Source of the DNA: Escherichia phage vB_EcoM_VR26
Sequence record: NC_028957.1
Direction: 5' to 3' (one strand)
Length of the DNA: 64,000 nt
In this document: positions 1 through 56,141 of the stretch, piece after piece
Layout: each line of letters begins with the position of its first letter
Position numbering within the stretch: position 1 is the stretch's first letter
The notes under the pieces: model-generated
What the model was told of the DNA's origin: nothing
The model's input: only the letters and a program-made list of their open reading frames with translations
Database searches by the model: none
Made by a program: the position numbers and the translations under genes

Positions 1-1389
1 TTCACGCCCACGAGATTTAATCGTTTCGTTGAATTCTTCATCAAGCGTAAAACTATAATCAGCTTCCATAACTTTCAGATAAGCATTAATTTGCTTATTA
101 AAGATAGGAATATATTTCTTAATAATCGCGCCTTTGATTCCAGAATCTTTCAACATATCCGTTAAGATACCACGTTGATATTTTTCCATAACAAGGTTTG
201 ATTTCTGTTTGACTATTTTATCAAGCTGGTCTTGAAGCGTTTTAATATCATCGGCATGGTCAATGAATTCAGACTTAGCTTGTTCAATTAACGTCTTAAC
301 CTTTTTAGCTTTATCCACAGTCTGGATTAACGTTTGTTTCTTAGTTTGAATCTCTTGAGCTATTGTACGTTGGTTTTGTCTTGCTTCAGCGTACGCATCA
401 AATCGTTCCTGAATGGAGGCCTGGAGAGCTTTATGGCTATCAGACTCACGATTATACTCTTCAATCTTTGTCTCAATCCTGGGGACTATGGAGTCTCCTG
501 GCGACAATTGACTCAAACACGTTTGGCAACAACCGCCTTTCTCGTACAAACCGATTACCTTACGGAAGCTATCGATTTTCGATTTAATCAGGAACGATTC
601 TTGCTTGACTTTCGTCAGTTCCTGTTCAGGGTCTTCACCCAAAATAATCTCGGTCAATCTTGTCGTTGCTTCATCAATCGTTGATTTGATATCACGAGCT
701 TCTGAAGCCAAATCATCATACATCGTTTGCAGTCGTAGCAGATTATCACCGGATAATTTTTTCTGCTTTTCAACGTTGTCCTGGTAGATTTTAATCTGTT
801 GCACAACACCATCATGCTGAACGTCAATCACCTGGATTTGACTGTTGACTTCACGGATAAGAGATTTGTTGAGCTTATCCATATCAGCCAGTACAGAAAC
901 CTCTAGCAGGTCTTCGACGAGTTTTCTTCTTGCAGGAGTGGATAGGCCCATGAAAGGGGTATATCCAGCTGTGCCGAGTACGACAATCTGTTTGAAACTG
1001 GCGTATGACATTCCGATAAGCTGTTCAAATTCTGCTTGGAAGTCTTTACTGCTGGCAGATTCATCAAGACGTTCACCGCCACAAGAGATTTCAAAAACAT
1101 TGGGTTTTTGCCCACGTTTGATATAGTATTCTTTGCCATCATATTCCATCCACAATTCAACGAGCATATCTTTTTTGTTGCTCGAGTTAATCAACTGCCC
1201 TTTCTTAACATCACGAAAAGGCTTACCAAACAATGCAAATGTAACGGCTTCAAGGAAGGTTGATTTACCTGCACCGTTCTTACCGGTCACCAGAGTTTTC
1301 TGGACCTTATCGAGTTGAACCGTAATTGCTTGTGCTCCAACTGACATAATATTTTTATAGATAACTTTCTTTAGCTTAAAAGTCTTCAT
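1..1389 (-). CDS. 46: Recombination endonuclease subunit gp46 (Rad50/SbcC-like ATPase), N-terminal ~463 codons; 3' end lies beyond window start
   Basis: Not in ORF track (no stop inside window). Reverse translation from ATG at 1389 reads MKTFKLKKVIYKNIMSVGAQAIT...LDKVQKTLVTGKNGAGKSTFLEAVT (Walker A), matching T4 gp46 N-terminus from memory; sits downstream of gene 47 as in T4. Confidence 0.85.
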   Translation of the reverse strand, partial: MKTFKLKKVIYKNIMSVGAQAITVQLDKVQKTLVTGKNGAGKSTFLEAVTFALFGKPFRDVKKGQLINSSNKKDMLVELWMEYDGKEYYIKRGQKPNVFEISCGGERLDESASSKDFQAEFEQLIGMSYASFKQIVVLGTAGYTPFMGLSTPARRKLVEDLLEVSVLADMDKLNKSLIREVNSQIQVIDVQHDGVVQQIKIYQDNVEKQKKLSGDNLLRLQTMYDDLASEARDIKSTIDEATTRLTEIILGEDPEQELTKVKQESFLIKSKIDSFRKVIGLYEKGGCCQTCLSQLSPGDSIVPRIETKIEEYNRESDSHKALQASIQERFDAYAEARQNQRTIAQEIQTKKQTLIQTVDKAKKVKTLIEQAKSEFIDHADDIKTLQDQLDKIVKQKSNLVMEKYQRGILTDMLKDSGIKGAIIKKYIPIFNKQINAYLKVMEADYSFTLDEEFNETIKSRGRE

Positions 1390-1639
1390 CGTAATAAGCA
1401 TCCTTGATGCAAGATTCTGCCATATGAATTAATGTCTCTGGTGTATCATCTTCCATTACATTAAAGCTAAATTCTACAGCCCAATCAGTGACTACATAGA
1501 CTTTGATAAGTTGACCGGTTTCCCGGTCAGTAATGGCTTCAAACCAATACTTAATAGTATTCGGTTGGTTATCATCGTCAACCACATCACATTCGCGGAT
1601 ATGTTCAAGACCCGCTTCATTAAAATCATAAAGTCTCAC
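1376..1639 (-). CDS. hypothetical protein (87 aa) between genes 47 and 46
   Basis: ORF track; ATG abuts gp47 stop, 3' end overlaps gp46 start by 14 nt; acidic small protein. Confidence 0.5.
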   Translation of the reverse strand: MRLYDFNEAGLEHIRECDVVDDDNQPNTIKYWFEAITDRETGQLIKVYVVTDWAVEFSFNVMEDDTPETLIHMAESCIKDAYYDEDF

Positions 1640-2655
1640 GGTTGCACCTCAAGGTATAATTTGTTGGCCAATGCTTTAAGAGCTTTTGATTCTTTTTCAT
1701 TGGCATCAGGTAATGCATCGATATATTCTGCCATCATATCCGTTAAGCGTTTTATGTCTAGCTCTTCATCAGCATCTGTTGTGTCTACACTATTGTCAAC
1801 CTTATTGACAATACGCAAGTCATGCACGCGCTTTTCTAATTCAGATTCAAACTTGGTCAGTTCTTTATCGACTTTTTCTACAATAACACGGACTGATAAG
1901 TCTTTGAAGTCGTCGTAGTTAATAGTTTCGTTTGGATAGAAAATCTTCCGATGCCAGGTGGTTTCATTTGGAATAAATTTCATCTCTTCGGTTTCTGTAT
2001 CGAATTCCCAGAACCCGCGAGGGTCGTTCTCATCGCCTGCTGTTAATGTCCATGGTGTACCGATGTACTTAACGTTTGCAGCTTCTGAAATGGTATGGAA
2101 GTGTCCAGACCAAACTTGCTTGTACTTCTTAAGGAAATCAGGCTCAAGCCCGTGTGATTTCAATCCTTTATAGAAATAAAACCCGGTTAATTCCCAGTGA
2201 CCAATGCAATATTCAGCACCAGAAGTTTTGATGTGTTGATGAATGTCAGTTGCGTTCTCATCGCACATCCATGGAATCATATCGATGGATACACCATCAA
2301 AATCAACAGTTGTTGGCTTATCGTAGATTTTAACATGGTCATACTTATTCAGGAGTTCGGTGATAGCGTTAGGATGAATCTTATTCTTTAGATTCATGTC
2401 ATGGTTCCCGATTATCGTGTGCAGAGTAATTCCTGCTTCACGAAGGAGTTCCATAATCTCACGGCTGAATTCCATCGTCTTATGCGTCACGGCCTTACGG
2501 ACATCAAAGATATCACCGTATTGAATCCAGACTTTAATTCCATTCGCCTTAGAATATGCAATCGCCTGTAAAATACCATCGCGTTGAATGTTTTGAGCCC
2601 ATGGGTCGTCAGCTTTGACACCCAAGTGCCAATCACCTAAATTTAAAATTTTCAT
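1636..2655 (-). CDS. 47: Recombination endonuclease subunit gp47 (Mre11/SbcD-like nuclease)
   Basis: 339 aa; MKILNLGDWHLGVK...GDIFD...GNHD phosphoesterase motifs; near-colinear with T4 gp47 as recalled. Confidence 0.95.
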   Translation of the reverse strand: MKILNLGDWHLGVKADDPWAQNIQRDGILQAIAYSKANGIKVWIQYGDIFDVRKAVTHKTMEFSREIMELLREAGITLHTIIGNHDMNLKNKIHPNAITELLNKYDHVKIYDKPTTVDFDGVSIDMIPWMCDENATDIHQHIKTSGAEYCIGHWELTGFYFYKGLKSHGLEPDFLKKYKQVWSGHFHTISEAANVKYIGTPWTLTAGDENDPRGFWEFDTETEEMKFIPNETTWHRKIFYPNETINYDDFKDLSVRVIVEKVDKELTKFESELEKRVHDLRIVNKVDNSVDTTDADEELDIKRLTDMMAEYIDALPDANEKESKALKALANKLYLEVQP

Positions 2656-2675
2656 ATACTCTCCTCAGTTGGTTC

Positions 2676-2700
2676 ATTTTATCATCCCGATTATAAAGCA
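2676..2700 (-). promoter_or_regulatory. Putative MotA-dependent middle promoter for genes 47-46
   Basis: Minus strand tttTGCTTTA (MotA box), 12-nt spacer, TAAAAT, then SD GAGGAG and ATG 2655. Confidence 0.5.
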
Positions 2701-2722
2701 AAAAAGGAAGCACTAGGCTTCC
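2695..2722 (-). terminator. Rho-independent terminator upstream of gene 47
   Basis: Minus strand GGAAGC-ctagt-GCTTCC followed by TTTTTTGCTTT. Confidence 0.6.
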
Positions 2723-2972
2723 TTTCCAATTAATACACCGTACAGAGGTTCATGAGAAGACTTGAACTTGATGGGCTTATAGGTAATAGTACCTTCATTT
2801 TCTGCTTTAATACGAGCGGCTTCAAATTGAAGCATCATCTCATTTTTGTCAGATTTAATCTTATCAAAATCCGTCGAACTCGTCATTCATACGCCCTCTT
2901 AAACCTTTTCGTATTCGTCGTTCAATCTATTAAAAATCCGGATGTTCGTCATTCATTAACCTTCTCCAAATC

Positions 2973-3176
2973 CTACCATCGCATCCACCACTTCTTAAGC
3001 TGATGTGAATCTACCCAAACCTTGACTACAGGCTCAATCTGAAAAATACCATCAGACTGACGGCCAATCATTTTGTATTCGGTTTCGGTCTGCTTAATAC
3101 AGATATTACCATATGAGCGAAGTCTGAAAGCGGCTCCAACAAGAAGCCGTTTAAAAGGTTTATTTACTAATGCCAT
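2973..3176 (-). CDS. hypothetical protein (67 aa)
   Basis: ORF track; co-oriented with early genes; overlaps next ORF start. Confidence 0.35.
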   Translation of the reverse strand: MALVNKPFKRLLVGAAFRLRSYGNICIKQTETEYKMIGRQSDGIFQIEPVVKVWVDSHQLKKWWMRW

Positions 3177-3471
3177 TTACGATTTCCCAAATTTGCTTGC
3201 GAGTAGTTTCCCACATCAACTTAATCAGGTCTTCCGTAACTGGTTGGCGGTAAATTCCACGCAGTTTAACTAAAGCATATTTGTATGCTTCAAAATTGTT
3301 TTCCAGCACTGCCCCTTGAGCATGCTTATTCAGTCGTTCAATTTCACGAGCATTCTTTTTCAGAATCTTTGCTGCCTGGCTGGTAGCTTCGAGTGCGTTC
3401 GCTTCTTCGAGACGTTCCTGTGCTTCTTCAATCTGCTTATCGGTCAGTTGAGAAATATCTGGAGCTTGCAT
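3160..3471 (-). CDS. hypothetical protein (103 aa)
   Basis: ORF track; co-oriented, tight spacing with flanking ORFs. Confidence 0.45.
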   Translation of the reverse strand: MQAPDISQLTDKQIEEAQERLEEANALEATSQAAKILKKNAREIERLNKHAQGAVLENNFEAYKYALVKLRGIYRQPVTEDLIKLMWETTRKQIWEIVNGISK

Positions 3472-3472
3472 A

Positions 3473-3724
3473 TTAATCCTTGGGAGTTAACTCAATTGTA
3501 AAATATAGATTAGCATTATCCACATGATAACGGTAATCAACGTTATTATCCGGTGAAGTAAATTCCAGATTCCGGACGTTTAAAGGGTCGATATCAATTG
3601 GAAGACCTTTTATGTCTCGCAGATAAAGTTTAATGAAATATGGGAGCGCTGTAAAGTCTTCCTCGATTTTATCTAAAAAATCGGTAATATCAAATTGATG
3701 TTCCATATAAAAAATCCAAATCAC
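3473..3724 (-). CDS. hypothetical protein (83 aa)
   Basis: ORF track; immediately downstream of gene 55. Confidence 0.45.
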
Positions 3725-4247
3725 CTTCTTTATCTTTGGCGCTCTTATCAGACCCTGGCGCTTTAACTAAGGAGGATTCGTACTGTGTCATTTTGTCATA
3801 GATGTCCTGGATAAATGTTTCGTCAGCCAGAGCCACCATATCGTCGTCACGTGAATCATACACGTTATGGACGAAGTAGCTATATTTCTTTGCCATTTCT
3901 TTACGTTCTTTTTTGATACGCTGAACGAAAGCATTGAAGCAAGCCATTGTTATGTAAGCATGTGGATTATCGTATTTTGTTTCGTCGAAGTTATGAAGAC
4001 CTTTTATTGCGGCCTCAATTCCGTCCGCTATCATTTCCTGCTTCCAAGATTGGGTATATCCTGAAAAGTTGAAACGTTTAGACAGACCTTCGGCTATAAG
4101 CATAATCGCCAGACCAATAACATCGTTCTGGCGAATAATTTTATTTGGGTCGGTATTTGCATTCAGCTTCTGTTTCCACTCCGAAATAGCTTTCAGAAGC
4201 TCTTTATTATTTACATAGTTATTCTTGGTTAATTTAATTTCGTTCAT
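3690..4247 (-). CDS. 55: Late-transcription sigma factor gp55
   Basis: 185 aa; NYVNNKELL...[36 protein letters not shown]...[21 protein letters not shown] matches T4 gp55 almost residue for residue from memory. Confidence 0.95.
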
Positions 4248-4295
4248 ATCGCCTCACTTAGTATATGAATATTATATCATCCTTGATACAAAGCG

Positions 4296-4562
4296 TTAGC
4301 GAAGTAAACAGTAAGCCTGGAAGACCTTCTCCATAATTGCCTTAAATTCGTGGATGTCAATATAAGGGATAACCTCAGCATCACTAATGAATTCCATCAG
4401 CCGGTCATGCTCTTCACGATAATAAGCTTCATTCAGCTTGCTGATATGAGATTCCCAGGAGCCATACCCTTCTGCACGTGGGAAGAATGTTATTTTCATG
4501 AATTCATCCACCCAAAACGTTCCCAGGTCCTGGACGGATATCATTGTATGATTGATGTGCAT
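4296..4562 (-). CDS. hypothetical protein (88 aa)
   Basis: ORF track; co-oriented small early ORF. Confidence 0.45.
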   Translation of the reverse strand: MHINHTMISVQDLGTFWVDEFMKITFFPRAEGYGSWESHISKLNEAYYREEHDRLMEFISDAEVIPYIDIHEFKAIMEKVFQAYCLLR

Positions 4563-4828
4563 CAGTGCACCAATTGGGCAGCTTCTAAAACATCATCAAG
4601 CTTATCAAACTGGTCAACATAATCAATCCCGCCAACTTCATCTTTGGCATACAACCAATACTGCTTGAATTCGTATTCAATAATAAAGTGGTCGCCTTCA
4701 ATCTGGAGGGCACCAACATCATTAAATTGAACTGCATAACCCGTAAAGCGGATATCATTCAGGAGTTCTTCTTTCATAGTAATCATTTCCAGGTTTTTCT
4801 CATAATGAGAGAGTTTAATTTTAATCAT
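4562..4828 (-). CDS. hypothetical protein (88 aa)
   Basis: ORF track; 1-nt overlap with downstream ORF. Confidence 0.45.
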   Translation of the reverse strand: MIKIKLSHYEKNLEMITMKEELLNDIRFTGYAVQFNDVGALQIEGDHFIIEYEFKQYWLYAKDEVGGIDYVDQFDKLDDVLEAAQLVH

Positions 4829-5169
4829 TTCGCGCCCTTAACAATTTTCAGGTCAACAAAACCTTTCTTACGCTGGGAATTCATGCGCTTGATGGCTTTG
4901 TCAGAAACTTCTTTGTTTTCACGTGGGAGCGGCAGACCAAACGCTACTACATCAAATTCATTCAGGATATACTGGACAAGGCTTTCACGAATACGCGCTT
5001 TACCCATTGTCTGACCTTCTGCAATAATCAACTTCTGTACATCACCTTCCCACTGGTCCAGAATCTCAGGAGTAACGAAACCAGATTTCATCAGAGTGTT
5101 AACTTTAGCAAATGCGAAATTAGCGATGGTGTTAGTGATAGATGCAGTCATGATATATTCCTCAGTCAA
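4825..5169 (-). CDS. hypothetical protein (114 aa)
   Basis: ORF track; 4-nt overlap with downstream ORF. Confidence 0.5.
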   Translation of the reverse strand: MTEEYIMTASITNTIANFAFAKVNTLMKSGFVTPEILDQWEGDVQKLIIAEGQTMGKARIRESLVQYILNEFDVVAFGLPLPRENKEVSDKAIKRMNSQRKKGFVDLKIVKGAK

Positions 5170-5223
5170 TTAAATTAAAATTTTATTATCCTTGGGGTCA
5201 TTATACCATGACCCCGTTGGTTT

Positions 5224-5421
5224 TTACTGCGCTTTAGCACCTTTCCAGCCTTCGTACATCAATGCGGCCGATAATAATATTGTCCCTGCACATTTTGAAT
5301 AATAGAGATTCCAAAACCAGTTCAGAAAAACTTCATCATCAATACCTTGAGCTATCATATTTTCAAAGAACTGACGACGAGATTCAGCAATTCGCTGTGA
5401 TAATTTAGATTCAGGATTCAT
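5224..5421 (-). CDS. hypothetical protein (65 aa)
   Basis: ORF track. Confidence 0.4.
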   Translation of the reverse strand: MNPESKLSQRIAESRRQFFENMIAQGIDDEVFLNWFWNLYYSKCAGTILLSAALMYEGWKGAKAQ

Positions 5422-5646
5422 TTAAATTTTCCAGTTACCGTTTTCATCAATAAATTTAATCCAGTCATTTACTGACCACTTAGTTGTATCGCCTTTTGGA
5501 GCAGAATTTAAAGTGTATAATCCTTGTTTAAAAAGCATTCGTTTAATATTCATGTTTTCCTCAGCTGTAACGATAACATTCGTTTGATTTACGCTTTGCA
5601 ACACGGTGAGAAGTATTATAATCCAAATCATCCTCAACGTATACAT
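5422..5646 (-). CDS. hypothetical small protein with N-terminal hydrophobic segment (74 aa)
   Basis: ORF track; MYTLRMIWIIILLTVLQS looks like a signal/TM segment. Confidence 0.4.
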   Translation of the reverse strand: MYTLRMIWIIILLTVLQSVNQTNVIVTAEENMNIKRMLFKQGLYTLNSAPKGDTTKWSVNDWIKFIDENGNWKI

Positions 5647-5878
5647 CTTTTTTCAACTGACGAACTTCTTTACGCAGTTGACGATTCATCTCATTCTTAA
5701 CTTCTGAATCAACACCACGCATACGCTTCCATTTGTCGGAACGGAAGATATTTTCGTTCAAAGTTTCTTCTGATACACCATCAGGCGCTTTACGTCTAGC
5801 TATGCAATTAAAATCTTTAGAAGACAAATCTTTACGACGAATAGTTTTACCCATAGTTACCTCAGCAGTTAGCGTCAA
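5561..5878 (-). CDS. hypothetical basic protein (105 aa)
   Basis: ORF track; K/R-rich; 86-nt overlap with downstream ORF so one of the two boundaries is uncertain. Confidence 0.4.
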   Translation of the reverse strand: MTLTAEVTMGKTIRRKDLSSKDFNCIARRKAPDGVSEETLNENIFRSDKWKRMRGVDSEVKNEMNRQLRKEVRQLKKDVYVEDDLDYNTSHRVAKRKSNECYRYS

Positions 5879-6137
5879 TAAGATTTTTGATATACTGGAT
5901 ATCTTTGATACCCAAATCCAACTTAAGGTCTTCCAGACGTTCGCCCAGGGACAAAAAGGTTACATGCTTCCAATTTTTTATTGGGCAACAATAAGTCTTA
6001 GGACCATTTGCAATTTCAATATTCTTATCAGCGATGGTGAGAAAAATCAGACGCTCATCATCCAGATTAAGGGTAATGATATTTTTCATTGCGTGTAATT
6101 TAAGGCTCATGATTTGATTTCCTCTGCTACTGCACAA
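5862..6137 (-). CDS. hypothetical protein (91 aa)
   Basis: ORF track. Confidence 0.4.
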   Translation of the reverse strand: MCSSRGNQIMSLKLHAMKNIITLNLDDERLIFLTIADKNIEIANGPKTYCCPIKNWKHVTFLSLGERLEDLKLDLGIKDIQYIKNLIDANC

Positions 6138-6289
6138 AACACGCTACGGTCACACACCATCTGTGGGGCATCAGGCCAATTCAAAGGTTGATACCATACA
6201 TCCAGACTTGATATTTTAGTTACTTGAACAGGATAGCCATTTACAGAATAATACCGGTCAACTTTAATTTCTTTATCTTGAACAACCAT
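6107..6289 (-). CDS. hypothetical protein (60 aa)
   Basis: ORF track; preceded by promoter-like cassette at 6321-6353. Confidence 0.4.
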   Translation of the reverse strand: MVVQDKEIKVDRYYSVNGYPVQVTKISSLDVWYQPLNWPDAPQMVCDRSVFCAVAEEIKS

Positions 6290-6320
6290 TTTGTTTTCCT
6301 CATCAGTAGTTGATGGGATA

Positions 6321-6353
6321 ATGATACATCATTCAAAGGGGCTTGTACACCCC
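6321..6353 (-). promoter_or_regulatory. Early-promoter/stem-loop cassette (PeSL-like)
   Basis: GC hairpin GGGG-tgtacaag-CCCC with -35-like GTGTAC in loop, about 17 nt to TATCAT. Confidence 0.4.
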
Positions 6354-6356
6354 TTT

Positions 6357-6674
6357 TTAATCTTCAATTAAGTCCTGGTCATACCCCAAGGATATCAGTT
6401 TTGTTTTAAAGGCAGGAATATTGGTCATTTTTTCATCATTGACAAAAATCACCGGGTAACGAATGTTAAGGGTAGGATATCCAGCACGCTTAGCCAGAGA
6501 CACGATTAAAGGCCTGTCATAAGCGATTTCAGAGCCTTGTTTGTTAAGGACTGAATAGAATGTATAGGGAAGGTTTAAGGAGCCCAGAAGGCTCCTGATG
6601 TGCATACAACCAGGGCATCGACCGACTTCTTCGGGAATGCCATAGATTTCAATTTTAGTCGAGTTTTGGCCCAC
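6357..6674 (-). CDS. Glutaredoxin/thioredoxin-fold protein with CPGC redox motif (nrdH-like position)
   Basis: 105 aa; KIEIYGIPEEVGRCPGCMHIRSLL resembles the N-terminal CxxC strand-helix of glutaredoxins; lies between 55 and 49 where T4 carries nrdH. Confidence 0.55.
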   Translation of the reverse strand: MGQNSTKIEIYGIPEEVGRCPGCMHIRSLLGSLNLPYTFYSVLNKQGSEIAYDRPLIVSLAKRAGYPTLNIRYPVIFVNDEKMTNIPAFKTKLISLGYDQDLIED

Positions 6675-6954
6675 AGGAAATTACTCCTTGGTAGTTCCAG
6701 GTTTTAATAACTTCTTCATCACTGGTAGTTTCATACGGAATGTAAACCTGTACAAGGAAACCAGTGTCATCGAAAGAGAAATAAACTGTCGGTTTGATTC
6801 CATGAATCTCGGATTGGGCATAGATATCTTTAAGGTCTTCTTCCTTATCAGCAAAGAATTCCGGGTTCAGGTCACAGTCATGGAAGTACCATTCATCACC
6901 GAACTTGTCCCACGCGGTCCAATTAGTAGCTACATATTCTTCAAAACGTTTCAT
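6655..6954 (-). CDS. hypothetical protein (99 aa)
   Basis: ORF track. Confidence 0.45.
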   Translation of the reverse strand: MKRFEEYVATNWTAWDKFGDEWYFHDCDLNPEFFADKEEDLKDIYAQSEIHGIKPTVYFSFDDTGFLVQVYIPYETTSDEEVIKTWNYQGVISCGPKLD

Positions 6955-7166
6955 TCTTTCACCTTCATCATTTTAGCAATAACACTATGGACAGCCTGGA
7001 TTCGTTTGTCGAACTCAGAGCTTTCGAGGCCAGGATTGGTGCTCAACCAACCAATGATAACAAACAGCAAACCAAACGGGATAGCCAGAATAAGCAGACA
7101 AACGATGAACAACACAAGCGTTATGTTTGCCAGAATATCTGCTGCTGCATTACGAAAATTATTCAT
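6951..7166 (-). CDS. hypothetical small membrane protein (71 aa)
   Basis: ORF track; central hydrophobic stretch LVLFIVCLLILAIPFGLLFVIIGWL. Confidence 0.5.
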   Translation of the reverse strand: MNNFRNAAADILANITLVLFIVCLLILAIPFGLLFVIIGWLSTNPGLESSEFDKRIQAVHSVIAKMMKVKE

Positions 7167-7287
7167 AGAATAGCCCAGGTATTATTAACAACAAATAACC
7201 ATAGAGAAGGATATTCTACACCCATGCGGCGGATAATATCATTCATAGATTCAGCTAAAGCATAAAATGTGTAGCCATAAAAATTAA

Positions 7288-7761
7288 TCATTTGAGCGAT
7301 TTCCTCAGTTGTTTTTTAAATGAAGCTTGTAGTTTAGGCTTCGTATCAGATTCATTATAAGTCATACCGTTCAAAAGCATTTCCTGAATCATTTCTTCTT
7401 TTCCCAGGCGACCAAACTCTTTGGCTTTGTCTGTCACAAAATTGGGGTGAATATTGTTTTCGGTATAATCAGATTTCAGATAGACAAGCAAACTCTCTAA
7501 CCATTCCAGGTAGTCAACATCGCGACCTTTCAGACCCGAGCGGCTGAACTTATGCTTCATTTGTCCTTCTGTTCCATTGCACAGATTGCATAGTAACCCA
7601 CGAACCTTACCGGCTTTTGGCCCGTTCAATTCGTGGTCATGGTCAAGATGGTTGGCCTGAACATCGGAGTCCAAATCACGGTGGCAAATTGGACACTTAC
7701 CAGCTTGTGCATCATAAAGTTTTTGTTTTTCTTCTTTGTATAATTTGCCAGTCAACAACAT
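7288..7761 (-). CDS. 49: Endonuclease VII, Holliday-junction resolvase gp49
   Basis: 157 aa; MLLTGKLYKEEKQK...HLDHDHELNGPKAGKVRGLLCNLCN matches T4 gp49 from memory. Confidence 0.95.
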   Translation of the reverse strand: MLLTGKLYKEEKQKLYDAQAGKCPICHRDLDSDVQANHLDHDHELNGPKAGKVRGLLCNLCNGTEGQMKHKFSRSGLKGRDVDYLEWLESLLVYLKSDYTENNIHPNFVTDKAKEFGRLGKEEMIQEMLLNGMTYNESDTKPKLQASFKKQLRKSLK

Positions 7762-8242: not shown

Positions 8243-8433
8243 TAAAAGGCCTCATCAGAATAGCGAAGTTGAGCTTCAAGCCAATGAATATAATCTGCTG
8301 CGGCAAAAATTAAAGCCGATTCTTCATCGGGTAACTTACGAGAATCCGACAGCTCGTAAAGAGAATGTTCAATTAAACGACCTTTATGTCGACCTACTTC
8401 AATTTTGGTACTCATACCCAAACTCCATATCAA
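8242..8433 (-). CDS. hypothetical protein (63 aa)
   Basis: ORF track; 1-nt overlap with downstream ORF. Confidence 0.4.
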   Translation of the reverse strand: MIWSLGMSTKIEVGRHKGRLIEHSLYELSDSRKLPDEESALIFAAADYIHWLEAQLRYSDEAF

Positions 8434-8531
8434 TTAAATCATTGTTTGAAGGTTCATTATACTCTATTTCGGAATCGTTGTAAACCGGTTCCTCTGGCTC
8501 GACAGTTTCCCATCGAGCGGTATACCATGGC

Positions 8532-8840
8532 TTAACGGTCACACCAATAACTACTTACTTCAAAATCAGGCTCACCGTCGTCCCAATACCAAGGACCAAC
8601 CGGATGCCAATCGCCATGCTTATCTTCTTCATATTCTTCAGATTCAAGCCCGACATATTGCCATTGGACTTCATAAGCAGTGCCACCAATTACAACCGTG
8701 TTTTCGCCGTACGGGTTAGCAACAGCAAAGTCAATACCTTCTTCTTTCGCCAGGGCTACCATGTATTCATAGAGTTTATATTCCAGGTCGTCTTCTGTAC
8801 CGTCACCTAGAAAAATGGTCTGTTCGTTTAATTCAATCAT
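8532..8840 (-). CDS. hypothetical acidic protein (102 aa)
   Basis: ORF track. Confidence 0.45.
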   Translation of the reverse strand: MIELNEQTIFLGDGTEDDLEYKLYEYMVALAKEEGIDFAVANPYGENTVVIGGTAYEVQWQYVGLESEEYEEDKHGDWHPVGPWYWDDGEPDFEVSSYWCDR

Positions 8841-9025
8841 AATTCCACCATAAATTCAAATAGCTGGTCACGTACACAAGTATCAGTCCAACCCCATTCG
8901 TTGGCTTCTTCTTTTAACCAATCCGGGAGATTTGCCAATACGGTTTCTTTACTAGGCGCAGGAGTATCAAACTCTCTTGCAAACTCTCTTGCGCAGGTTT
9001 CATAAGCTGTATCAAATTCGGTCAT
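8837..9025 (-). CDS. hypothetical protein (62 aa)
   Basis: ORF track; 4-nt overlaps on both sides. Confidence 0.45.
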   Translation of the reverse strand: MTEFDTAYETCAREFAREFDTPAPSKETVLANLPDWLKEEANEWGWTDTCVRDQLFEFMVEL

Positions 9026-9189
9026 TTAAAGTTCCAGAATGAAGCACCAACCAGAAATAAAGGCCAACAAATCATAGACGTCAGCCACCAACAAAAATCA
9101 CCTGCACCAAAATCATCTAATTTAGCTAGGGTCTTAGCATACCCAATACCAATGATAATATACAAAACACCCAACATTAATTCAATCAT
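9022..9189 (-). CDS. hypothetical small membrane protein (55 aa), below ORF-track cutoff
   Basis: Own translation: MIELMLGVLYIIIGIGYAKTLAKLDDFGAGDFCWWLTSMICWPLFLVGASFWNFK; ATGA overlaps with nrdC stop upstream and next ORF start downstream. Confidence 0.5.
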   Translation of the reverse strand: MIELMLGVLYIIIGIGYAKTLAKLDDFGAGDFCWWLTSMICWPLFLVGASFWNFK

Positions 9190-9449
9190 TTGAAATATTC
9201 TCGCAGTTCAGTGAATCCGCCAATATGACTTCCGTCAGGAGCAAACACTTGTGGCATAGTCAAACCAATTTGAGATTCGCGACCAAGTGCAGCCAGGAGT
9301 TGAGCAATCTTCTCATCATCAAACACACCTTTTTCTGGCATGACGTTGATGAATTCGTAAGGTTGTTTTTTAACATCCAAAAAACGTTTTACATTATCGC
9401 AGAATACACAGCGATGGATAGATGAATCATAACCATATACTTTAAACAT
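9186..9449 (-). CDS. nrdC: Glutaredoxin/thioredoxin NrdC
   Basis: 87 aa; MFKVYGYDSSIHRCVFCDNVKRFL...IGLTMPQVFAPDGSHIGGF matches T4 NrdC from memory. Confidence 0.9.
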   Translation of the reverse strand: MFKVYGYDSSIHRCVFCDNVKRFLDVKKQPYEFINVMPEKGVFDDEKIAQLLAALGRESQIGLTMPQVFAPDGSHIGGFTELREYFK

Positions 9450-9450
9450 A

Positions 9451-9708
9451 TTATTCCTTAATTCCTAATACTTGTTTGAAGGTCTCAGTATAATCGGAGT
9501 ATTGACCGGTTTGTTCTTTATGTTTGTCCATAATATCATAAACTTCTGAACGCATATTATTATACGAACGGGTTAAAGCGGATTTCAATACTGAATAACT
9601 ATCCGGAAATTTACCGTGTTCTTTATAATAGGCCAGAGTTAATTCACGGACCGCCTTATCAGCAGTCTCAAGATATTCTTTACGCTTTGCCATTTTCTTC
9701 TCGCTCAA
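9451..9708 (-). CDS. hypothetical protein (85 aa)
   Basis: ORF track. Confidence 0.45.
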
Positions 9709-9901
9709 ATTTGTGTTTACAATGACGGCATTTATATTGAAGCGGAGAGCTACGCCAATAAGTCAATTGGACCTGTTCAGTTCCGCATTCAGGGCAGTTC
9801 GGAACATTCTTAGAAGCTTGTTCACGTCGTTCGACAATTTTAATAATTTGGTTCCAATCAGGAATAGTTTCTGCAATGTCTTCTCTTAAACGTTGTTTCA
9901 T
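9680..9901 (-). CDS. hypothetical protein with two CxxC pairs (zinc-ribbon-like, 73 aa)
   Basis: NCPECG ... CRHCKH pairs about 21 residues apart. Confidence 0.45.
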
Positions 9902-10875
9902 TTCAACAGCTCCAGAGCCTGTTCCAGTTTATCCAGACGATTGGTTGATTCTTCCCAGAGCTTTTTAGCTTTAGTGTAGGCCTCAGTTAAGATTTTATTA
10001 TGTTCAAGAGCTTCCGAGTAAGCCTTTTCTAAGGCGATAACTTCAGGGCGTACATTATCAGGAACATTATTAATGGCTTCAGCCCATTTAACTTCTTGCG
10101 GTGCATTCATAATTTCCTCACTTTTCTTTTTATAGATTTCTGCATCAGTTGGTTGCTTTGCACATTTAACTTCGCGCAGTGTCACCACAATTTTATAACC
10201 TTTCCAACCATGAGAACTGGTGATAGGGTCAACTTTAATTTTTTCAACAGTGTGCATATAATTAAGTGCACACTGCAGCTGATGAGTGAGCGTGCACGCA
10301 ACATCAAGATACTTTTTGATATTTTCAGGCGTAGCCTCTGGAGTATAGAACTCACGCTTAACTGTAATAATTACCTGATTTTCACCAGAATCTTTAACCT
10401 TTACCATGTGCTCAGCCAGATGGTAGATAGTGCGAAAATCCCCACCCATCAATTTTGTTGCTGATTTTATGATAGACATTTTGTTATTTCTGAATTCACG
10501 TGACCAACTGTTTGCGAATTCAGAAACAGTATAGCCTTGTTTATCAAGATAGTATTTTTCAACATCACCAAACCAATGATATCCAATTGTACCTTTACCA
10601 CGTCTGGATTCAACACCAAACTTATTAAGAAGGTCTTTATTAACCAGGTATGCCAGGACTCTGGAACCTTTAAAAGTTTTCTTGATATCATCATTACCTG
10701 CGCGATTCGCAATAGCCGCGATGTCTTTCTCAAAGTGACAGGATGCAATAATCGTCGAGTCAATCTGATTTAACCAGGAATTGATAATTGAAAGGATAGC
10801 CGATTCACCTATTAATGGTTTTACTTTTGTATCGATAGTGGTGTTAAAGGCCTGAATATATTCGTTACGTGTCAT
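9898..10875 (-). CDS. hypothetical protein (325 aa) with C-terminal coiled coil
   Basis: ORF track; C-terminus ...[21 protein letters not shown] is heptad-like; no family recognised. Confidence 0.55.
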   Translation of the reverse strand: MTRNEYIQAFNTTIDTKVKPLIGESAILSIINSWLNQIDSTIIASCHFEKDIAAIANRAGNDDIKKTFKGSRVLAYLVNKDLLNKFGVESRRGKGTIGYHWFGDVEKYYLDKQGYTVSEFANSWSREFRNNKMSIIKSATKLMGGDFRTIYHLAEHMVKVKDSGENQVIITVKREFYTPEATPENIKKYLDVACTLTHQLQCALNYMHTVEKIKVDPITSSHGWKGYKIVVTLREVKCAKQPTDAEIYKKKSEEIMNAPQEVKWAEAINNVPDNVRPEVIALEKAYSEALEHNKILTEAYTKAKKLWEESTNRLDKLEQALELLK

Positions 10876-14734: not shown

Positions 14735-15698
14735 ACTTGTCCCAGAACTTCATGTCTACCTTATCAGGCATACCGTTCTTGGCCGCCCAGACGGCATTGG
14801 TTTCGACTTCATCGACGATTGCTTCAAGTTCAGCTTGTACATCTTTAAAAGCGTGTAGGCCTTGTTTGATTTCAAGGATAAATGGAGCCGTACGTAAAGG
14901 ATATTGAAGGTCACCGGTCATATAAATTTCCTTCAGCTGATATCCAGCTCGATAAGCATGACTCAATGCTTTCCAGTCAATACCTTCATTCGCTTCGGCC
15001 TTACGAGCGCGTTCACCATATTCGGCATCAAGTTTATTCAGAGATTGCTTAAGCTCGATTAATGACAAAGTAGTTTGGTATTTGCGACCGAGAACAGTAT
15101 AAAACGTTTGAGGACCGGTTTTCTCATGGTTATGGAACACCCATTCGCAAAATTCGTTCTCTGGAAGACGATGCTTAATATCTTCAACTTTAGTACGACG
15201 TTGTTTAGTCGTACCATCTTCTTGGTAGTCAACCCACTGTTCAGGAATCTGGTTAACAATTGCCAGTACACCACGTAAAGCAGCCAGTCTAGAACCTTTA
15301 ACACCATATTTTGAAGCTTGCTTACGGACATACCCCAAATATGCTTTCATGTTGGTCGTATAGAACCGTGAACGGTTGTCTTGGATAAATTTCCATACAT
15401 CTGGTAAATCGGATTTGACTACCAGGTTAGCCGGAGTGTGAATCATGTCCAGAGCAACAGTTTCACCTTCAGCCGCCAGTTTAAAGAAATATTTCAGGCT
15501 ATAAAGCTCGTGGTCAACATCGTCTTTAGTGTTTTTGGATGCCGTGTTATTCGTGTTCAAGTTTGTATGATTCATAGCCGTACCTAACAGAATGTCACGT
15601 GGGTGTGGAACAAAGATTTCCTTAAAATCGACATCAGATTCAGGAGTACTTGTTCCATAAAGATGTGAGCCAAAATAGCCCTTCATAACTGTTCTCAT
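14688..15698 (-). CDS. Predicted polymerase-beta-fold nucleotidyltransferase (336 aa)
   Basis: N-terminal GSHLYGTSTPESDVD fits the hG[GS]x9-13DxD motif; T4 has an uncharacterised nucleotidyltransferase-like ORF in the nrdC region. Confidence 0.6.
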   Translation of the reverse strand: MRTVMKGYFGSHLYGTSTPESDVDFKEIFVPHPRDILLGTAMNHTNLNTNNTASKNTKDDVDHELYSLKYFFKLAAEGETVALDMIHTPANLVVKSDLPDVWKFIQDNRSRFYTTNMKAYLGYVRKQASKYGVKGSRLAALRGVLAIVNQIPEQWVDYQEDGTTKQRRTKVEDIKHRLPENEFCEWVFHNHEKTGPQTFYTVLGRKYQTTLSLIELKQSLNKLDAEYGERARKAEANEGIDWKALSHAYRAGYQLKEIYMTGDLQYPLRTAPFILEIKQGLHAFKDVQAELEAIVDEVETNAVWAAKNGMPDKVDMKFWDKFVEEVYLDNHNSYYR

Positions 15699-16462
15699 TA
15701 TTCGCCTCTTTCATAGTCTTCAATAAATTGCATAATTAAACGTTGATAGTTAGATTTACGGTATCCTAATTTACTAATATGAGTACCAAAAGCTCCACGC
15801 TTAGGCCTATTTAATTTAACCCATAAAGAATAAAGCAAATCATAATCTTGCCAATGTTTTCCTATTCTTTGCTTTGCTTTAGAAGCGTCGGACTGCCTCT
15901 TTTTAGTCTCTGGATTATTTAGAGATTTCTTAACAGCATTTGAATGTCTTTCTCTAACACCCGGGCGTTTAAATGCTTCTTTAACAGATTTAGAAATTTT
16001 CTCTTTAACTTCAGGACGGTTTTGAGCTTCTATTTGAGCCGCCGACATTTTATCTTTTATTTCGGATAGACTCATAGTTATAGAACGTTTATTTCTATAC
16101 TCTTTGGTCTTCCATAGTTCTTTCATCGTATTTGAATGAATTTCTGAAAATTTTTCTCTAACTAATTGGTAGCCCCTAGAAGTTAGTTTAAGATTTCTTC
16201 CTAGAGAATCCTCGCCGAAGTTATAAAATGACCACCAGGCATAAATTAATCCAGAAGAATCAGAATGAATTCTGGCTAGAAGCCAGTGTGCTATAAAATG
16301 TTCTCTGGCCGTCAGCAGAACTAAATTATTAGGTTCATCACTCCCACCAATACATGATGGGAGTATATGATGGGACTCTGTATAAAAATTTAATTTGGAT
16401 TTGTCTAATCCTCTGAATTTACCTCTTTGGATTAGACTATCATAAAGCTTTGTATAATTCAT
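15698..16462 (-). CDS. HNH homing endonuclease (Mob-like)
   Basis: ESHHILPSCIGGSDEPNNLVLLTAREHFIAHW HNH core; start placed at internal MNYTKLYDSL (track extends to 16501). Confidence 0.75.
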   Translation of the reverse strand: MNYTKLYDSLIQRGKFRGLDKSKLNFYTESHHILPSCIGGSDEPNNLVLLTAREHFIAHWLLARIHSDSSGLIYAWWSFYNFGEDSLGRNLKLTSRGYQLVREKFSEIHSNTMKELWKTKEYRNKRSITMSLSEIKDKMSAAQIEAQNRPEVKEKISKSVKEAFKRPGVRERHSNAVKKSLNNPETKKRQSDASKAKQRIGKHWQDYDLLYSLWVKLNRPKRGAFGTHISKLGYRKSNYQRLIMQFIEDYERGE

Positions 16463-16464
16463 TA

Positions 16465-16920
16465 TTATTTTGTTTTGTCCTCGAAGTGAATTACCGGACA
16501 CATCTTAGATTTACGAGCTTTAATGTATTGGACGACAAGGTTTTCTTTAATTTCCTTTCCTTCACGCTCAGCTTTAATTCGTTTCCATTCTTTTTCTTCT
16601 TTATGTAAATCGTACCAGGTCCATAAATTCATTAGACCATACATTAAACCAAATGCTACCGCCAGAATAAGAGCCAGTGTAGATAGCCCCAAAATAAAAC
16701 CTAACCCCAAACCAACAGGAGTACTTAATACAAAGAACTGCTCCAATACACCAGCACCTGCAACAGTTAAGGCGAAAATAGTACTACCTGCAACCACAGA
16801 AAAAACAAAACAGGCCCATACAATTTTCCAGAAGTAAGCACACAATGAGTGTGGTCGAGAATGACGGTCATAAAAACGGTCGTGTAATTTAGCGTGCCAA
16901 GCGTTTGTATTGATAATCAT
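16465..16920 (-). CDS. hypothetical membrane protein (151 aa)
   Basis: Multiple hydrophobic segments. Confidence 0.5.
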   Translation of the reverse strand: MIINTNAWHAKLHDRFYDRHSRPHSLCAYFWKIVWACFVFSVVAGSTIFALTVAGAGVLEQFFVLSTPVGLGLGFILGLSTLALILAVAFGLMYGLMNLWTWYDLHKEEKEWKRIKAEREGKEIKENLVVQYIKARKSKMCPVIHFEDKTK

Positions 16921-44135: not shown

Positions 44136-44429
44136 ATGGCTGGATTAAGTTTTAATCAATGTGTTACAGCAGGTCACGAAGCATGGCCACCGACTGTAAT
44201 CAATGCAACTCAAGGTAAAGTATTCACCGGGGGAATTCCTGTGTTAGTTGCCGGGGACCCTATTACCGAACATACCGAAATTAAAAAACCATATGAAACC
44301 CACGGTGGAGTAACACAACCAAGAACTCCGAAGGTATTTGTTACCGGTAAGAAAGCTGTTCAAATGGCGGACCCGATTTCATGTGGTGATACTGTGGCTC
44401 AAGCTTCAGGAAAGGTGTTCATAAAATGA
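44136..44429 (+). CDS. 5.4: PAAR-repeat spike-tip protein gp5.4
   Basis: 97 aa, same length and position as T4 gp5.4; Gly/Val-rich PAAR-like sequence. Confidence 0.8.
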
Positions 44430-45103
44430 ACAAAGAATTTAATTTTGTATATGTAACTACAAACCTAGAAAATGGTAAAAAGTATATAGGCAAACATTCT
44501 ACTGATGATATGTTTGATGGATATTACGGTACAGGGGAGCTTATCAAAAAAGCTTATAAAAAATATGGAAAGGATTTGTTTGAGACAAAAATAATAAAAT
44601 TTTTTGATACTGAAGATGAGGCTTACGACTACGAAGAATTTTTAGTAGACGAATCTATAATTTATGATGATAGATATTATAATATAGATTTGGGTGGCAA
44701 AGGAAGTATGCGAGGAAGAAAGCATAAGGAATCTTCAAAGAAGCAAATATCAGACAAAATGAAGGGTAGGTCAAAGCCACCACGAAGTAAAGAATATATT
44801 GAAAATTTTGAAAAAGCTATGGCCAAAAGGAGAAAACCTAAGTCACCTCCTAAACCGAGGGTTTTTGTTAGAGGAGAAGAACATCCTTTATATAAAAGAC
44901 CCAGACCGCAATCTGTTATTGACCTATGTAAACTTAATAATAGAAAACACCCCATATGGCAATCATACGATATTTTATTCAAATTATGGAAAGAAAATGA
45001 TAAGCCAGGTTGGAGAAAAATGACCCGATTAGCCATTGAAAACGGATTTCCAAATACGGCTTATGATAAAATGATAAAACAATTTAAACAGGATTCAGAA
45101 TAA
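44426..45103 (+). CDS. GIY-YIG homing endonuclease (Seg-like) inserted between 5.4 and 6
   Basis: [25 protein letters not shown] motif, [23 protein letters not shown]3-like basic tail; ATGA and TAATG coupling to both neighbours. Confidence 0.85.
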
Positions 45104-47049
45104 TGGCTACTCCTACGAATTACCAATTAACAAGAACCGTTAACGCTATCCCAAAAGTATTTGTGGGAGCTACGTTTGAAGAAATTAAAAAGAACATCAT
45201 CGACTGGTTATCAAGCCAGGATGAATTTAAGGATTATGATTTCGTAGGTTCGCGAATGAACATCCTGATTGATATGCTTGCATATAATACATTGTATATG
45301 CAGCAGTTTGCTAATACAGCGGTTTATGAAACATTCATCGGAACTGCAAACTTAAGGTCTTCGGTTGTTCAGGCGGCACAGGATAATGGCTATCTTCCAT
45401 CTTCTCGCTCAGCTGCAAAGACTTCTGTTATGTTGACGTGTTCCCATGCTCTGCAGCCATCGAATATTGAAATACCTCGTGGAACTAAGTTCCTGGCTTA
45501 TGCTCGGGATACATCAGCTGACCCTTATGTTTTTGTTACCACGGAAAATGTTATCGCAGTTAAAGATATTAACAACCAATACCTTCCGATTGTATCTCTG
45601 GCACAAGGTCGTATTATTCGTACAGAACTTTTATATGACCCGAAACAACCTATTCTTATTCGTGACCCGGATATCGACCGCAAAGAAGTTAAGTTATACG
45701 TGAACGGCGTTGAGTGGGTTGACTGGACGAACAAATCAATGGTTCACGCTGGTTCGACTTCCACCATATTTTATATGCGTGAAACAATCGATGGTTATAC
45801 GGAATTTTTCTTCGGTGAAGGTGAATCTACTAAATCTGTAGCCGGCGGCGTTATGGAAGCCAACTATATTGGCGGTCTTAAACCTGTGCAAGATTCGACA
45901 ATTGTTATTGAGTATCTTCGTACATCAGGAGCGGATGCTAACGGTGCAGTAGATTTCAGTTATGCTGATACGTTGTCTTATATCACAGTGGATAAGATTA
46001 CCGAAAACTACAATGACGACCCTGATTATGTCGGTGCCGATGGTGGTGGTGACCAGGAAGATATCGAACGAATCCGTGAACTGGCTGTTGTTAAACGTGA
46101 AGCGCAGATGCGTGCTGTCACCGGAACGGATTATGATACCTTCGTATCTGAAAGATTCGGCTCAATCGTGCAAGCCGTACAGACGTTTACGGACGCCAAT
46201 AAACCTGGGTATGCGTTTATATCAGTTAAGCCTAAATCGGGCCTATATCTCACTGCAGTGCAGCGTGAGGACATACAGAACTACCTGGCGGATTTCAACG
46301 TATCAACAATTACACCATCGGTTATTTCTCCAGATTATTTGTTCCTTAGACATAATATCAAAGTATCTTATGCACTGAACAAATTACAAGAATCTGAACA
46401 ATGGTTGCAAGCGCAAATCATTAATCAAATTGACCGTTATTATATCGATGAAGTCGAAATCTTTAACAGAAGTTTTGCTAAGTCAAAAATGCTCACATAT
46501 GTTGATAATACTGACCATAGTATTCTTGGTTCGTCTGCAACTATTTCGATGGTGCGTGAAGTCCTGAACTTCTTTAAGACACCAGAATCCGGCATTAAAT
46601 ACTATAACCAGTATGGCAACCGTTCCGTCGAATCAAGTGAATTTGAATTTGTTCCGACCACAGGTGAAGCCTATAACGTTCGCATTGTTGCAACTGATAA
46701 AGATTCTCGTGGTGATGGTAAAATGGTAATTGGTCCATTCCGTCAGGGCGATGTTATCGAAAACGTAAACATCCAGCCTTATCTACAAGATGACTTTAAT
46801 AAAATGGAAGCTCCGGCTGACCAAACAGTTTATTACGCAATCGGCGAAATTGACTATTATTCTGATTATATTTTTTGGGATATCGCTGCGATTGGATTGA
46901 CCTCCGACCGCTTTGAGGTTCAATCAATCGAACTTTATGCAAGTCCTAACCAAGATAATATATACACGCAAGATGGTTCGCTGATTGTATTTGAGAATGA
47001 CCTTCGTCCCCAATATACAAAGATTGACCTCGAACCAATTACACTATAA
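45103..47049 (+). CDS. 6: Baseplate wedge protein gp6
   Basis: 648 aa; [17 protein letters not shown]... colinear with T4 gp6 from memory. Confidence 0.95.
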   Translation: MATPTNYQLTRTVNAIPKVFVGATFEEIKKNIIDWLSSQDEFKDYDFVGSRMNILIDMLAYNTLYMQQFANTAVYETFIGTANLRSSVVQAAQDNGYLPSSRSAAKTSVMLTCSHALQPSNIEIPRGTKFLAYARDTSADPYVFVTTENVIAVKDINNQYLPIVSLAQGRIIRTELLYDPKQPILIRDPDIDRKEVKLYVNGVEWVDWTNKSMVHAGSTSTIFYMRETIDGYTEFFFGEGESTKSVAGGVMEANYIGGLKPVQDSTIVIEYLRTSGADANGAVDFSYADTLSYITVDKITENYNDDPDYVGADGGGDQEDIERIRELAVVKREAQMRAVTGTDYDTFVSERFGSIVQAVQTFTDANKPGYAFISVKPKSGLYLTAVQREDIQNYLADFNVSTITPSVISPDYLFLRHNIKVSYALNKLQESEQWLQAQIINQIDRYYIDEVEIFNRSFAKSKMLTYVDNTDHSILGSSATISMVREVLNFFKTPESGIKYYNQYGNRSVESSEFEFVPTTGEAYNVRIVATDKDSRGDGKMVIGPFRQGDVIENVNIQPYLQDDFNKMEAPADQTVYYAIGEIDYYSDYIFWDIAAIGLTSDRFEVQSIELYASPNQDNIYTQDGSLIVFENDLRPQYTKIDLEPITL

Positions 47050-47068
47050 GCCTCTTCGGAGGCTTTTT
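47049..47068 (+). terminator. Hairpin with UUCG loop between genes 6 and 7
   Basis: AGCCTC-ttcg-GAGGCT followed by TTTT then SD of gene 7. Confidence 0.4.
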
Positions 47069-47077
47069 AAGGAAACC

Positions 47078-51173: not shown

Positions 51174-51176
51174 CAA

Positions 51177-51199
51177 GGGACCTTTGGGTCCCTTTTTTA
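51177..51199 (+). terminator. Rho-independent terminator after gene 8
   Basis: GGGACC-tttg-GGTCCC followed by TTTTTTATTTT. Confidence 0.65.
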
Positions 51200-51202
51200 T
51201 TT

Positions 51203-51210
51203 TATAAATA
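51203..51210 (+). promoter_or_regulatory. Late promoter TATAAATA for gene 9
   Basis: Exact TATAAATA 28 nt upstream of ATG. Confidence 0.6.
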
Positions 51211-51237
51211 TAGCTATATCAATAACGAGGCTTACCT

Positions 51238-56133: not shown

Positions 56134-56141
56134 GGACCAAA

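Follow-up and report, generated by a model that had tools for sequence, protein, structure and literature searches.

The segment of Escherichia phage vB_EcoM_VR26 analysed here (sequence record NC_028957.1; 64,000 nucleotides, called the window) carries neither the alpha-glucosyltransferase gene a-gt between genes 47 and 55 nor the anaerobic ribonucleotide reductase genes nrdG and nrdD between genes 55 and 49, which are their positions in phage T4. This is very probably the normal gene content of the Dhakavirus/Gaprivervirus branch, consisting of a native state without a-gt and of two alternative cassettes, nrdG-nrdD (nrdDG) or a gene for a 42-residue protein (ORF42). The two absences differ in kind: that of a-gt is clade-wide, whereas the lack of nrdDG represents one allele at a site where members of the genus either carry or lack the cassette. 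The gene content is already known for the lineage and is not a new loss, so that the observation is correct but ordinary. Annotated genomes with this set of genes have been public since those of VR7 and JS98, and comparative studies have already pointed out that none of the known genes for cytosine modification occurs in Gaprivervirus. The present analysis adds that nrdDG in this genus is a mobile, Tequatrovirus-derived cassette alternating with the 42-residue gene, and it leads to a prediction of 5-methylcytosine in Gaprivervirus DNA.

The window belongs to a VR7/VR25-like Gaprivervirus (Tevenvirinae), a T4-like coliphage, and extends from gene 46 to gene 17. Its first 12 kb are 95-96% identical to Escherichia phages VR25 and VR7 over 97-98% of the length, and about 30 more Gaprivervirus-type records are 90-94% identical to the same part. 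The next 25 kb retrieve the same relatives. Over most of the 64 kb the identity is 91-98%, and the best matches are all Gaprivervirus. The window is collinear with the complete genome of VR7 (Gaprivervirus vr7, HM563683, joined from five retrieved segments) from gene 46 to gene 17 (VR7 31,987-94,366) and mostly 93-98% identical to it. The complete phage genome is about 170 kb long, so that about 105 kb lie outside the window. The region between genes 46 and 49 is organized as follows.

1..1389, minus strand: gene 46 (recombination endonuclease subunit), N-terminal part, running off the window start; collinear with gene 46 of VR25 and VR7, 96-98% DNA identity
1376..1639, minus strand: gene 46.2 homolog (ORF list; VR25/VR7 annotation)
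1636..2655, minus strand: gene 47, SbcD-like nuclease subunit (Pfam Metallophos; VR25/VR7 annotation)
2656..2712, minus strand: empty a-gt slot, the 57-bp junction between a-gt.2 and 47 (sequence; scan for terminator-like structures; T4 map)
2713..2886, minus strand: a-gt.2 homolog (phrog_2140, E=1e-32)
2973..3176, minus strand: a-gt.3 homolog (phrog_1648)
3160..3471, minus strand: a-gt.4 homolog (Pfam DUF2654, E=6e-25)
3473..3706, minus strand: a-gt.5 homolog (phrog_1169; start as in the VR25 annotation)
3690..4247, minus strand: gene 55, late sigma factor (98-100% DNA identity to VR25 gp55)
4296..6289, minus strand: small conserved genes, VR7-gp068-like, 55.1, 55.2, 55.3, 55.4, 55.5, VR7-gp075-like and 55.6 (a PHROG or Pfam match for each; VR25/VR7 annotation)
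6357..6674, minus strand: putative nrdH homolog, glutaredoxin-like, CPGC motif (Pfam Glutaredoxin below cut-off; NrdH in the VR7/VR25 annotation)
6655..6954, minus strand: VR7-gp078-like gene (phrog_2749, E=6e-49)
6951..7166, minus strand: gene 55.8 homolog, predicted membrane protein (phrog_1930)
7163..7291, minus strand: 42-residue ORF of the VR7ORF080c family in the nrdG-nrdD slot (phrog_3350, E=2e-22)
7288..7761, minus strand: gene 49, endonuclease VII (Pfam Endonuclease_7 and Endonuc-dimeris)

The backbone order 46-47-(a-gt.2-.5)-55-(55.x)-nrdH-55.8-49-nrdC is shared with T4. The VR25 ortholog of gp47 has 71% amino acid identity to T4 gp47, and VR25 gp55 has 79% identity to T4 gp55. The T4 annotation reads 47, 47.1, a-gt, mobB, a-gt.2-.5, 55, 55.1-55.6, nrdH, 55.8, nrdG, mobC, nrdD (with an intron and I-TevII) and 49; compared with the window, T4 thus adds 47.1, a-gt and mobB in one interval and nrdG, mobC and the intron-containing nrdD in the other, and its DNA contains glucosylated hydroxymethylcytosine (hmC). 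The interval between 47 and 55 is 1034 bp long in the window versus 3152 bp in T4, and holds only the homologs of a-gt.2,.3,.4 and.5. The interval between 55 and 49 is 3040 bp versus 6224 bp, and holds the 55.x genes, three small genes of RB69/JS98 type, nrdH, 55.8 and the 42-residue ORF. An earlier, sequence-only reading of this DNA had stated that both intervals lack the T4 genes and contain only ORFs of up to 114 residues besides one glutaredoxin-like gene, which agrees with what is found here. The largest ORF is the gp55.2 homolog (4825-5169; 114 residues, or 108 from the annotated ATG). The small ORFs in the intervals all match T4-type PHROG or Pfam families (E=1e-22 to 1e-49) and are therefore genes, not debris or remnants. 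The glutaredoxin-like gene (6357-6674) is a putative nrdH homolog. Its Pfam Glutaredoxin score of 20.0 bits (E=8e-4) is below the curated cut-off of 22.9. It encodes a CPGC motif and occupies the orthologous position, and its counterparts in VR7 and VR25 bear the annotation NrdH. Since T4 also has nrdH, the gene is not a replacement for the missing ones.

In place of 47.1, a-gt and mobB there are only 57 bp between the stop codon of a-gt.2 and the start codon of gene 47. A terminator-like hairpin (2701-2727; GGAAGC-loop-GCTTCC followed by a T-run) overlaps the a-gt.2 stop codon, and the Shine-Dalgarno ribosome-binding site of gene 47 lies inside the junction; no gene trace is left in the slot. 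T4 a-gt, b-gt, NrdG and gp42 and VR25 NrdD and NrdG were compared with all 64 kb in six frames (tblastn), and nothing better than E=0.4 was found. The best match of T4 a-gt (400 residues) has E=1.0 over 15 residues and is situated far from the slot. T4 b-gt (351 residues) has no match better than E=0.4 in the window, which does not include its T4 slot between uvsX and 42. For VR25 NrdD, a class III (anaerobic) ribonucleotide reductase of the glycyl-radical type with about 605 residues, the best value in the window is E=0.57, and for NrdG, a radical-SAM activase of about 156 residues, E=3.8. None of the minus-strand ORFs in the early region of the window is long enough for NrdD.

The same empty a-gt slot is present in VR7, VR25 and the Dhakaviruses VR5 and JS98. 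Homologs of a-gt were found in 657 of 50,697 phage records, and judged from identity bands and sampled rows the carriers are Tequatrovirus (about 90-100% amino acid identity) and Klebsiella T4-like phages (about 66%). This distribution, together with the shared empty slot, shows that the absence is clade-wide and long-standing. VR7 is the closest annotated relative without nrdDG. Neither the annotation of its complete genome nor a tblastn search at E<1 reveals a-gt, b-gt, gene 42, nrdD or nrdG; the annotated genes include nrdA, nrdB, td, frd, cd, 56, 1, denA, denB, alc and ndd. In VR25 only ORF048 and imm are situated between uvsX and 43, without b-gt or gene 42. With b-gt and gene 42 absent from VR7 as well as VR25, the entire hmC-sugar pathway is missing from the genus. 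The suggestion of the sequence-only reading, that the phage may lack alpha-glucosylated hmC and anaerobic nucleotide reduction, is thus supported, as neither the window nor the complete VR7 genome holds a homolog, but it was understated. VR7ORF049c, which occupies the gene 42/b-gt slot of VR7 and VR25, was considered as a substitute for gp42 and rejected: it has no Pfam match and belongs only to phrog_1754, a family of no assigned function.

The slot between 55.8 and 49 is occupied by nrdG and nrdD in VR25, by the 126-nt gene VR7ORF080c in VR7, and by the 42-residue ORF in the window, where the start and stop of the ORF overlap both neighbouring genes as ATGA. The window is homologous to VR25 exactly up to the start codon of 55.8 (7167/7168), and again from 13 nt before the stop codon of gene 49 (7300/7301). 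Between these breakpoints 133 bp of the window (7168-7300) stand against 2407 bp in VR25. The flanks of VR25 and Shigella phage SP18 are 95-100% identical to those of the window. An exact 37-mer from the ORF42 slot has no match in IMG/VR, and the one metagenome match is a 3-kb Dhakavirus-like contig with only 78% identity. ORF42 homologs, a recognised family (phrog_3350), are found in 58 phage records. The genes 55.8, ORF42 and 49 are contiguous in 45 records, namely in every sampled Dhakavirus (JS98, JS10, IME08, VR5, QL01 and others) and in the Gapriverviruses VR7, MN01 and TH44; ORF42 is also present in TH15. The Dhakaviruses, including ESCO10, resemble the window in this arrangement without nrdDG and in the absence of a-gt between 47 and a-gt.2, whereas their flanks are only about 64-88% identical to it. 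For VR25, SP18, VR20 and some 25 further Gaprivervirus records the match is split into two pieces, which shows that these phages carry nrdDG. The possibility that the 133-bp filler is a remnant of nrdD or nrdG was rejected, because neither blastn nor tblastn reveals any resemblance to the VR25 block and because the filler represents a conserved family of small genes.

The product names in the GenBank record of ESCO10 (vB_EcoM_ESCO10, OM386655.1) are out of register with the genes, making that annotation unreliable. The 129-nt ORF42 homolog is labelled there as "single-stranded DNA-binding protein" and the nrdH homolog as "double-stranded DNA binding protein".

T4 nrdD and nrdG are accessory genes. 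VR25 nrdD has 98% amino acid identity to T4 nrdD with a synonymous divergence (dS) of 0.235, compared with dS values from 0.8 to saturation for 14 flanking genes. VR25 nrdG and the adjacent spacer share 90-99% identity with some 660 records, and most of the rows sampled from these are Tequatrovirus; T4 is an outlier at 82.5%. Upon comparing VR25 with Tequatrovirus Sf21, the identity is 97.4% in the spacer, 96.0% in nrdG and 95.2% in nrdD, but 72.6% in 55.8 and 78.7% in gene 49. The identity steps coincide with the same two breakpoints as those between the window and VR25, and the T4-like tract of VR25 reaches into the last ~60 nt of gene 49. VR25 nrdG had been considered native on account of its dS of 0.81 relative to T4. 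This was rejected after comparison with typical Tequatroviruses, because the nrdG allele of T4 is itself the outlier. The block is 95-97% identical to Tequatrovirus while its flanks are only 73-79% identical; the nrdDG block of the Gapriverviruses, including the 2.4-kb spacer-nrdG-nrdD block of VR25 and SP18, has therefore been imported recently from phages of Tequatrovirus type. Having ORF42, as the sister genus Dhakavirus does, is the simplest native state.

The nrdD gene of VR25 (8244-10061 of the retrieved segment) is intronless, and the point at which it ceases to align with T4 is precisely where the T4 intron is inserted. A plausible vehicle of the import is co-conversion driven by homing endonucleases, such as I-TevII or mobC-type elements in the donor phages.

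The proposed explanation is as follows. The branch makes no use of glucosyl-hmC, and the 47/a-gt.2 junction has only the hairpin and the ribosome-binding site; with DNA that is not glucosylated, a-gt would have no substrate. The gene, with its neighbours 47.1 and the homing endonuclease gene mobB, is limited to Tequatrovirus and the Klebsiella T4-like phages. The 49/55.8 slot holds one of two cassettes, swapped by homologous recombination at the ends of the conserved genes. The 42-residue gene, as in the window, VR7 and every sampled Dhakavirus, would be the cassette native to the clade. The other, comprising the spacer, nrdG, nrdD and the last ~60 nt of gene 49, was taken recently from Tequatrovirus-type phages by most sequenced Gapriverviruses. 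A phage with the ORF42 cassette would obtain its deoxynucleoside triphosphates by means of its own aerobic NrdAB, which is present in VR7, and probably by means of the host NrdDG under anoxia. VR7-type and VR25-type phages thus form a clean natural pair for asking what a phage anaerobic reductase contributes in gut and sewage.

Several observations weigh against this explanation, most of them in favour of a secondary loss, in which the Gaprivervirus ancestor carried nrdDG and recombination with a Dhakavirus put the ORF42 cassette in its place. The mechanism of cassette exchange would be the same, but the absence would be derived in this lineage. The ORF42 of the window is closer to the Dhakavirus copies (93% amino acid identity to ESCO10 and 90% to VR5) than to the strongly divergent copy of VR7, so that the lineage may have acquired the cassette secondarily. 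In the region 8533-9025 the window lacks 49.2, which is present in VR25 and replaced by a MobE-like endonuclease in VR7, and has an extra 62-residue ORF similar to JS98 gp081 (8837-9025), as in Dhakavirus VR5. The stretch 8801-9000, which neither VR7 nor VR25 has, matches VR5 with 100% identity and is therefore a patch of recent recombination between the genera; that such exchange occurs also speaks for the cassette explanation. Moreover, most sequenced Gapriverviruses carry nrdDG, and the ancestral state is derived by parsimony on the sampled genomes. However, the ORF42 segment (7001-7400) has only about 80-85% DNA identity to the sampled Dhakaviruses, so there is no recent donor among them, and the nrdDG block is itself foreign to the genus, so that ORF42 remains the simplest ancestral state. 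A secondary loss is on balance rather unlikely.

The sequence-only reading had also allowed that the missing genes are carried elsewhere. In favour of such a relocation, only 64 kb of the genome are visible and T4-type genomes shuffle accessory genes; for the remaining ~105 kb, the conclusion that the genes would be absent there too is drawn from relatives and rests on VR7. No homolog is found in the window or in the complete VR7 genome, though, and in every annotated T4-type record retrieved with these genes (T4, VR25 and Sf21) they occupy the canonical slots, which makes relocation very improbable. It is just as hard to credit that the uncharacterized ORFs of the window include highly divergent proteins with the function of a-gt or NrdDG. 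Many ORFs have no known function, and the window has DNA in excess of VR7 at 15709-16478, 31923-33836, 44428-45101 and 59312-59939. However, the large genes of this kind, nrdC.4,.5,.6 and.11, are also present in T4 alongside a-gt and NrdDG, and the DNA of VR7 is not glycosylated. The DNA in excess of VR7 was rejected as a source of replacement functions, because it encodes only ORFs resembling homing endonucleases (HNH, GIY-YIG and NUMOD3) and members of small PHROG families without known function (164-197 residues). The native absence of a-gt combined with alternative nrdDG and ORF42 cassettes is thus the preferred explanation.

The missing a-gt has a counterpart in the chemistry of the DNA. 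Restriction analysis showed that the cytosines of VR7 DNA are modified but not glycosylated (Gordeeva et al., PMC6326788). The BREX defence system blocks VR7 more than 10^11-fold, as it does non-glucosylated T4, whereas Dhakavirus VR5 is glycosylated and escapes (PMC6326788). According to Nikulin and Zimin, Gaprivervirus lacks all known cytosine-modification enzymes while keeping dCTPase, DenA, DenB and Alc, and its DNA likely contains an unknown base (PMC8056088, PMC12115623). RB69-type phages make arabinosyl-5-hydroxycytosine using a homolog of thymidylate synthase (TS), and the same was inferred by synteny for Dhakaviruses (Lee et al. 2026, PMC13326640). A bulky residue at position 143 is associated with methyl instead of hydroxymethyl products, and D169N is characteristic of the 5-hydroxy-dCMP synthases (PMC13326640). 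Unlike the Dhakaviruses, VR7 and VR25 lack the RB69-like cluster of TS homolog, kinase and isomerase genes next to uvsX. Gaprivervirus, and presumably this phage too, would have dropped both the glucosyl-hmC and the arabinosyl-5-hydroxycytosine routes.

The sequence next to uvsX in Dhakavirus QL01 (NC_028847, 20151-25591) contains a TS homolog that is divergent, with 25% identity to T4 gp42, along with genes for a thymidylate-kinase-like protein and a sugar isomerase and two large genes of unknown function. It resembles the arabinosyl-5-hydroxycytosine cluster of RB69.

VR7 retains a single TS homolog, annotated as td and situated outside the window. Its positions within the retrieved segments are as follows.

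VR7, 48490-49350, minus strand: td
VR25, 2730-3590: td
SP18, 2566-3426: td
TH40, 101-961: td

The sequence GLPFNIASY of T4 Td (PDB 1TIS) and of two bacterial TS structures is replaced by GLPFDIGSY in VR7 Td. In the alignment, all four Gapriverviruses (VR7, VR25, SP18 and TH40) have Asp at E. coli position 177, and Asn is found in Dhakavirus EcWhh-1, Mosigvirus Shf125875, Tequatrovirus RB33, T4 Td (PDB 1TIS) and E. coli ThyA. Cys146, Leu143 and Asp169 are conserved in all aligned Td and ThyA sequences. The Gaprivervirus Td sequences form a cluster of 31 records with at least 85% identity, and all other T-even Td sequences are at most 69% identical. The Asn177 to Asp substitution predicts a switch to dCMP specificity, and the retention of Leu143 and Asp169 predicts a methyl product.

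From these substitutions, DNA containing 5-methylcytosine, as in Xanthomonas phage XP12, is predicted. The missing a-gt may then be a symptom of a genus-wide change in DNA chemistry, in which a re-tooled thymidylate synthase would make 5-methylcytosine at the level of the nucleotide, to take the place of cytosine; judged from the relatives, we give this an even chance of being correct. The phage would then obtain its dTMP either from the host or through Cd, by deamination of 5-methyl-dCMP. A literature search found no report of Td-made 5-methylcytosine DNA for any of the Straboviridae. If true, the prediction names the base that lets Gaprivervirus keep dCTPase, Alc and DenB without gene 42, a question raised earlier (PMC8056088, PMC12115623), and accounts for the modified, non-glycosylated cytosines of VR7 (PMC6326788). 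It would also bear on how sensitive these phages are to defence systems such as BREX and those of the McrBC type, and on their choice for therapy.

VR7 resembles the window in the gene order from 46 to 49, in having VR7ORF080c in place of nrdG-nrdD, and in keeping nrdH, with 93-98% DNA identity over the interval. It differs, apart from ORF42 and the endonuclease in place of 49.2, in an extra gene, ORF070c, and in lacking several insertions of the window. One of these, 770 bp long and situated between the homologs of nrdC.11 and VR7ORF102c, contains a 267-residue ORF (15698-16501, minus strand) whose N-terminus is 40% identical to the HNH homing endonuclease MobB of T4. Another, 1.9 kb long (31923-33836, minus strand), has three ORFs of unknown function with 190 (phrog_8788), 197 (phrog_1203) and 164 residues (phrog_18416), the last being a paralog of the neighbouring 141-residue ORF (34110-34535, phrog_9997). 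The 141-residue ORF is the homolog of VR7ORF147c, which a note in the VR7 annotation describes as "cytidine/deoxycytidylate deaminase-like". This was rejected, since neither the homolog (34110-34535, minus strand) nor the paralog (33583-34077) has the HxE or PCxxC motif or a Pfam or PDB match.

Two further insertions relative to VR7 lie in the late-gene block. An ORF of the GIY-YIG type, similar to SegE (44426-45103, plus strand), is situated between 5.4 and 6, and a 211-residue ORF with a weak NUMOD3 motif (59300-59935, plus strand) between 13 and 14. Each probably encodes a free-standing homing endonuclease. The baseplate genes 6-12 (45102-58310, plus strand) are about 77% identical to those of VR7, whereas the neighbouring regions are 93-98% identical. 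The fibritin (wac) ORF has 722 residues in the window and 528 in VR7. The baseplate genes 6-12 and the host-recognition module are a mosaic replacement.

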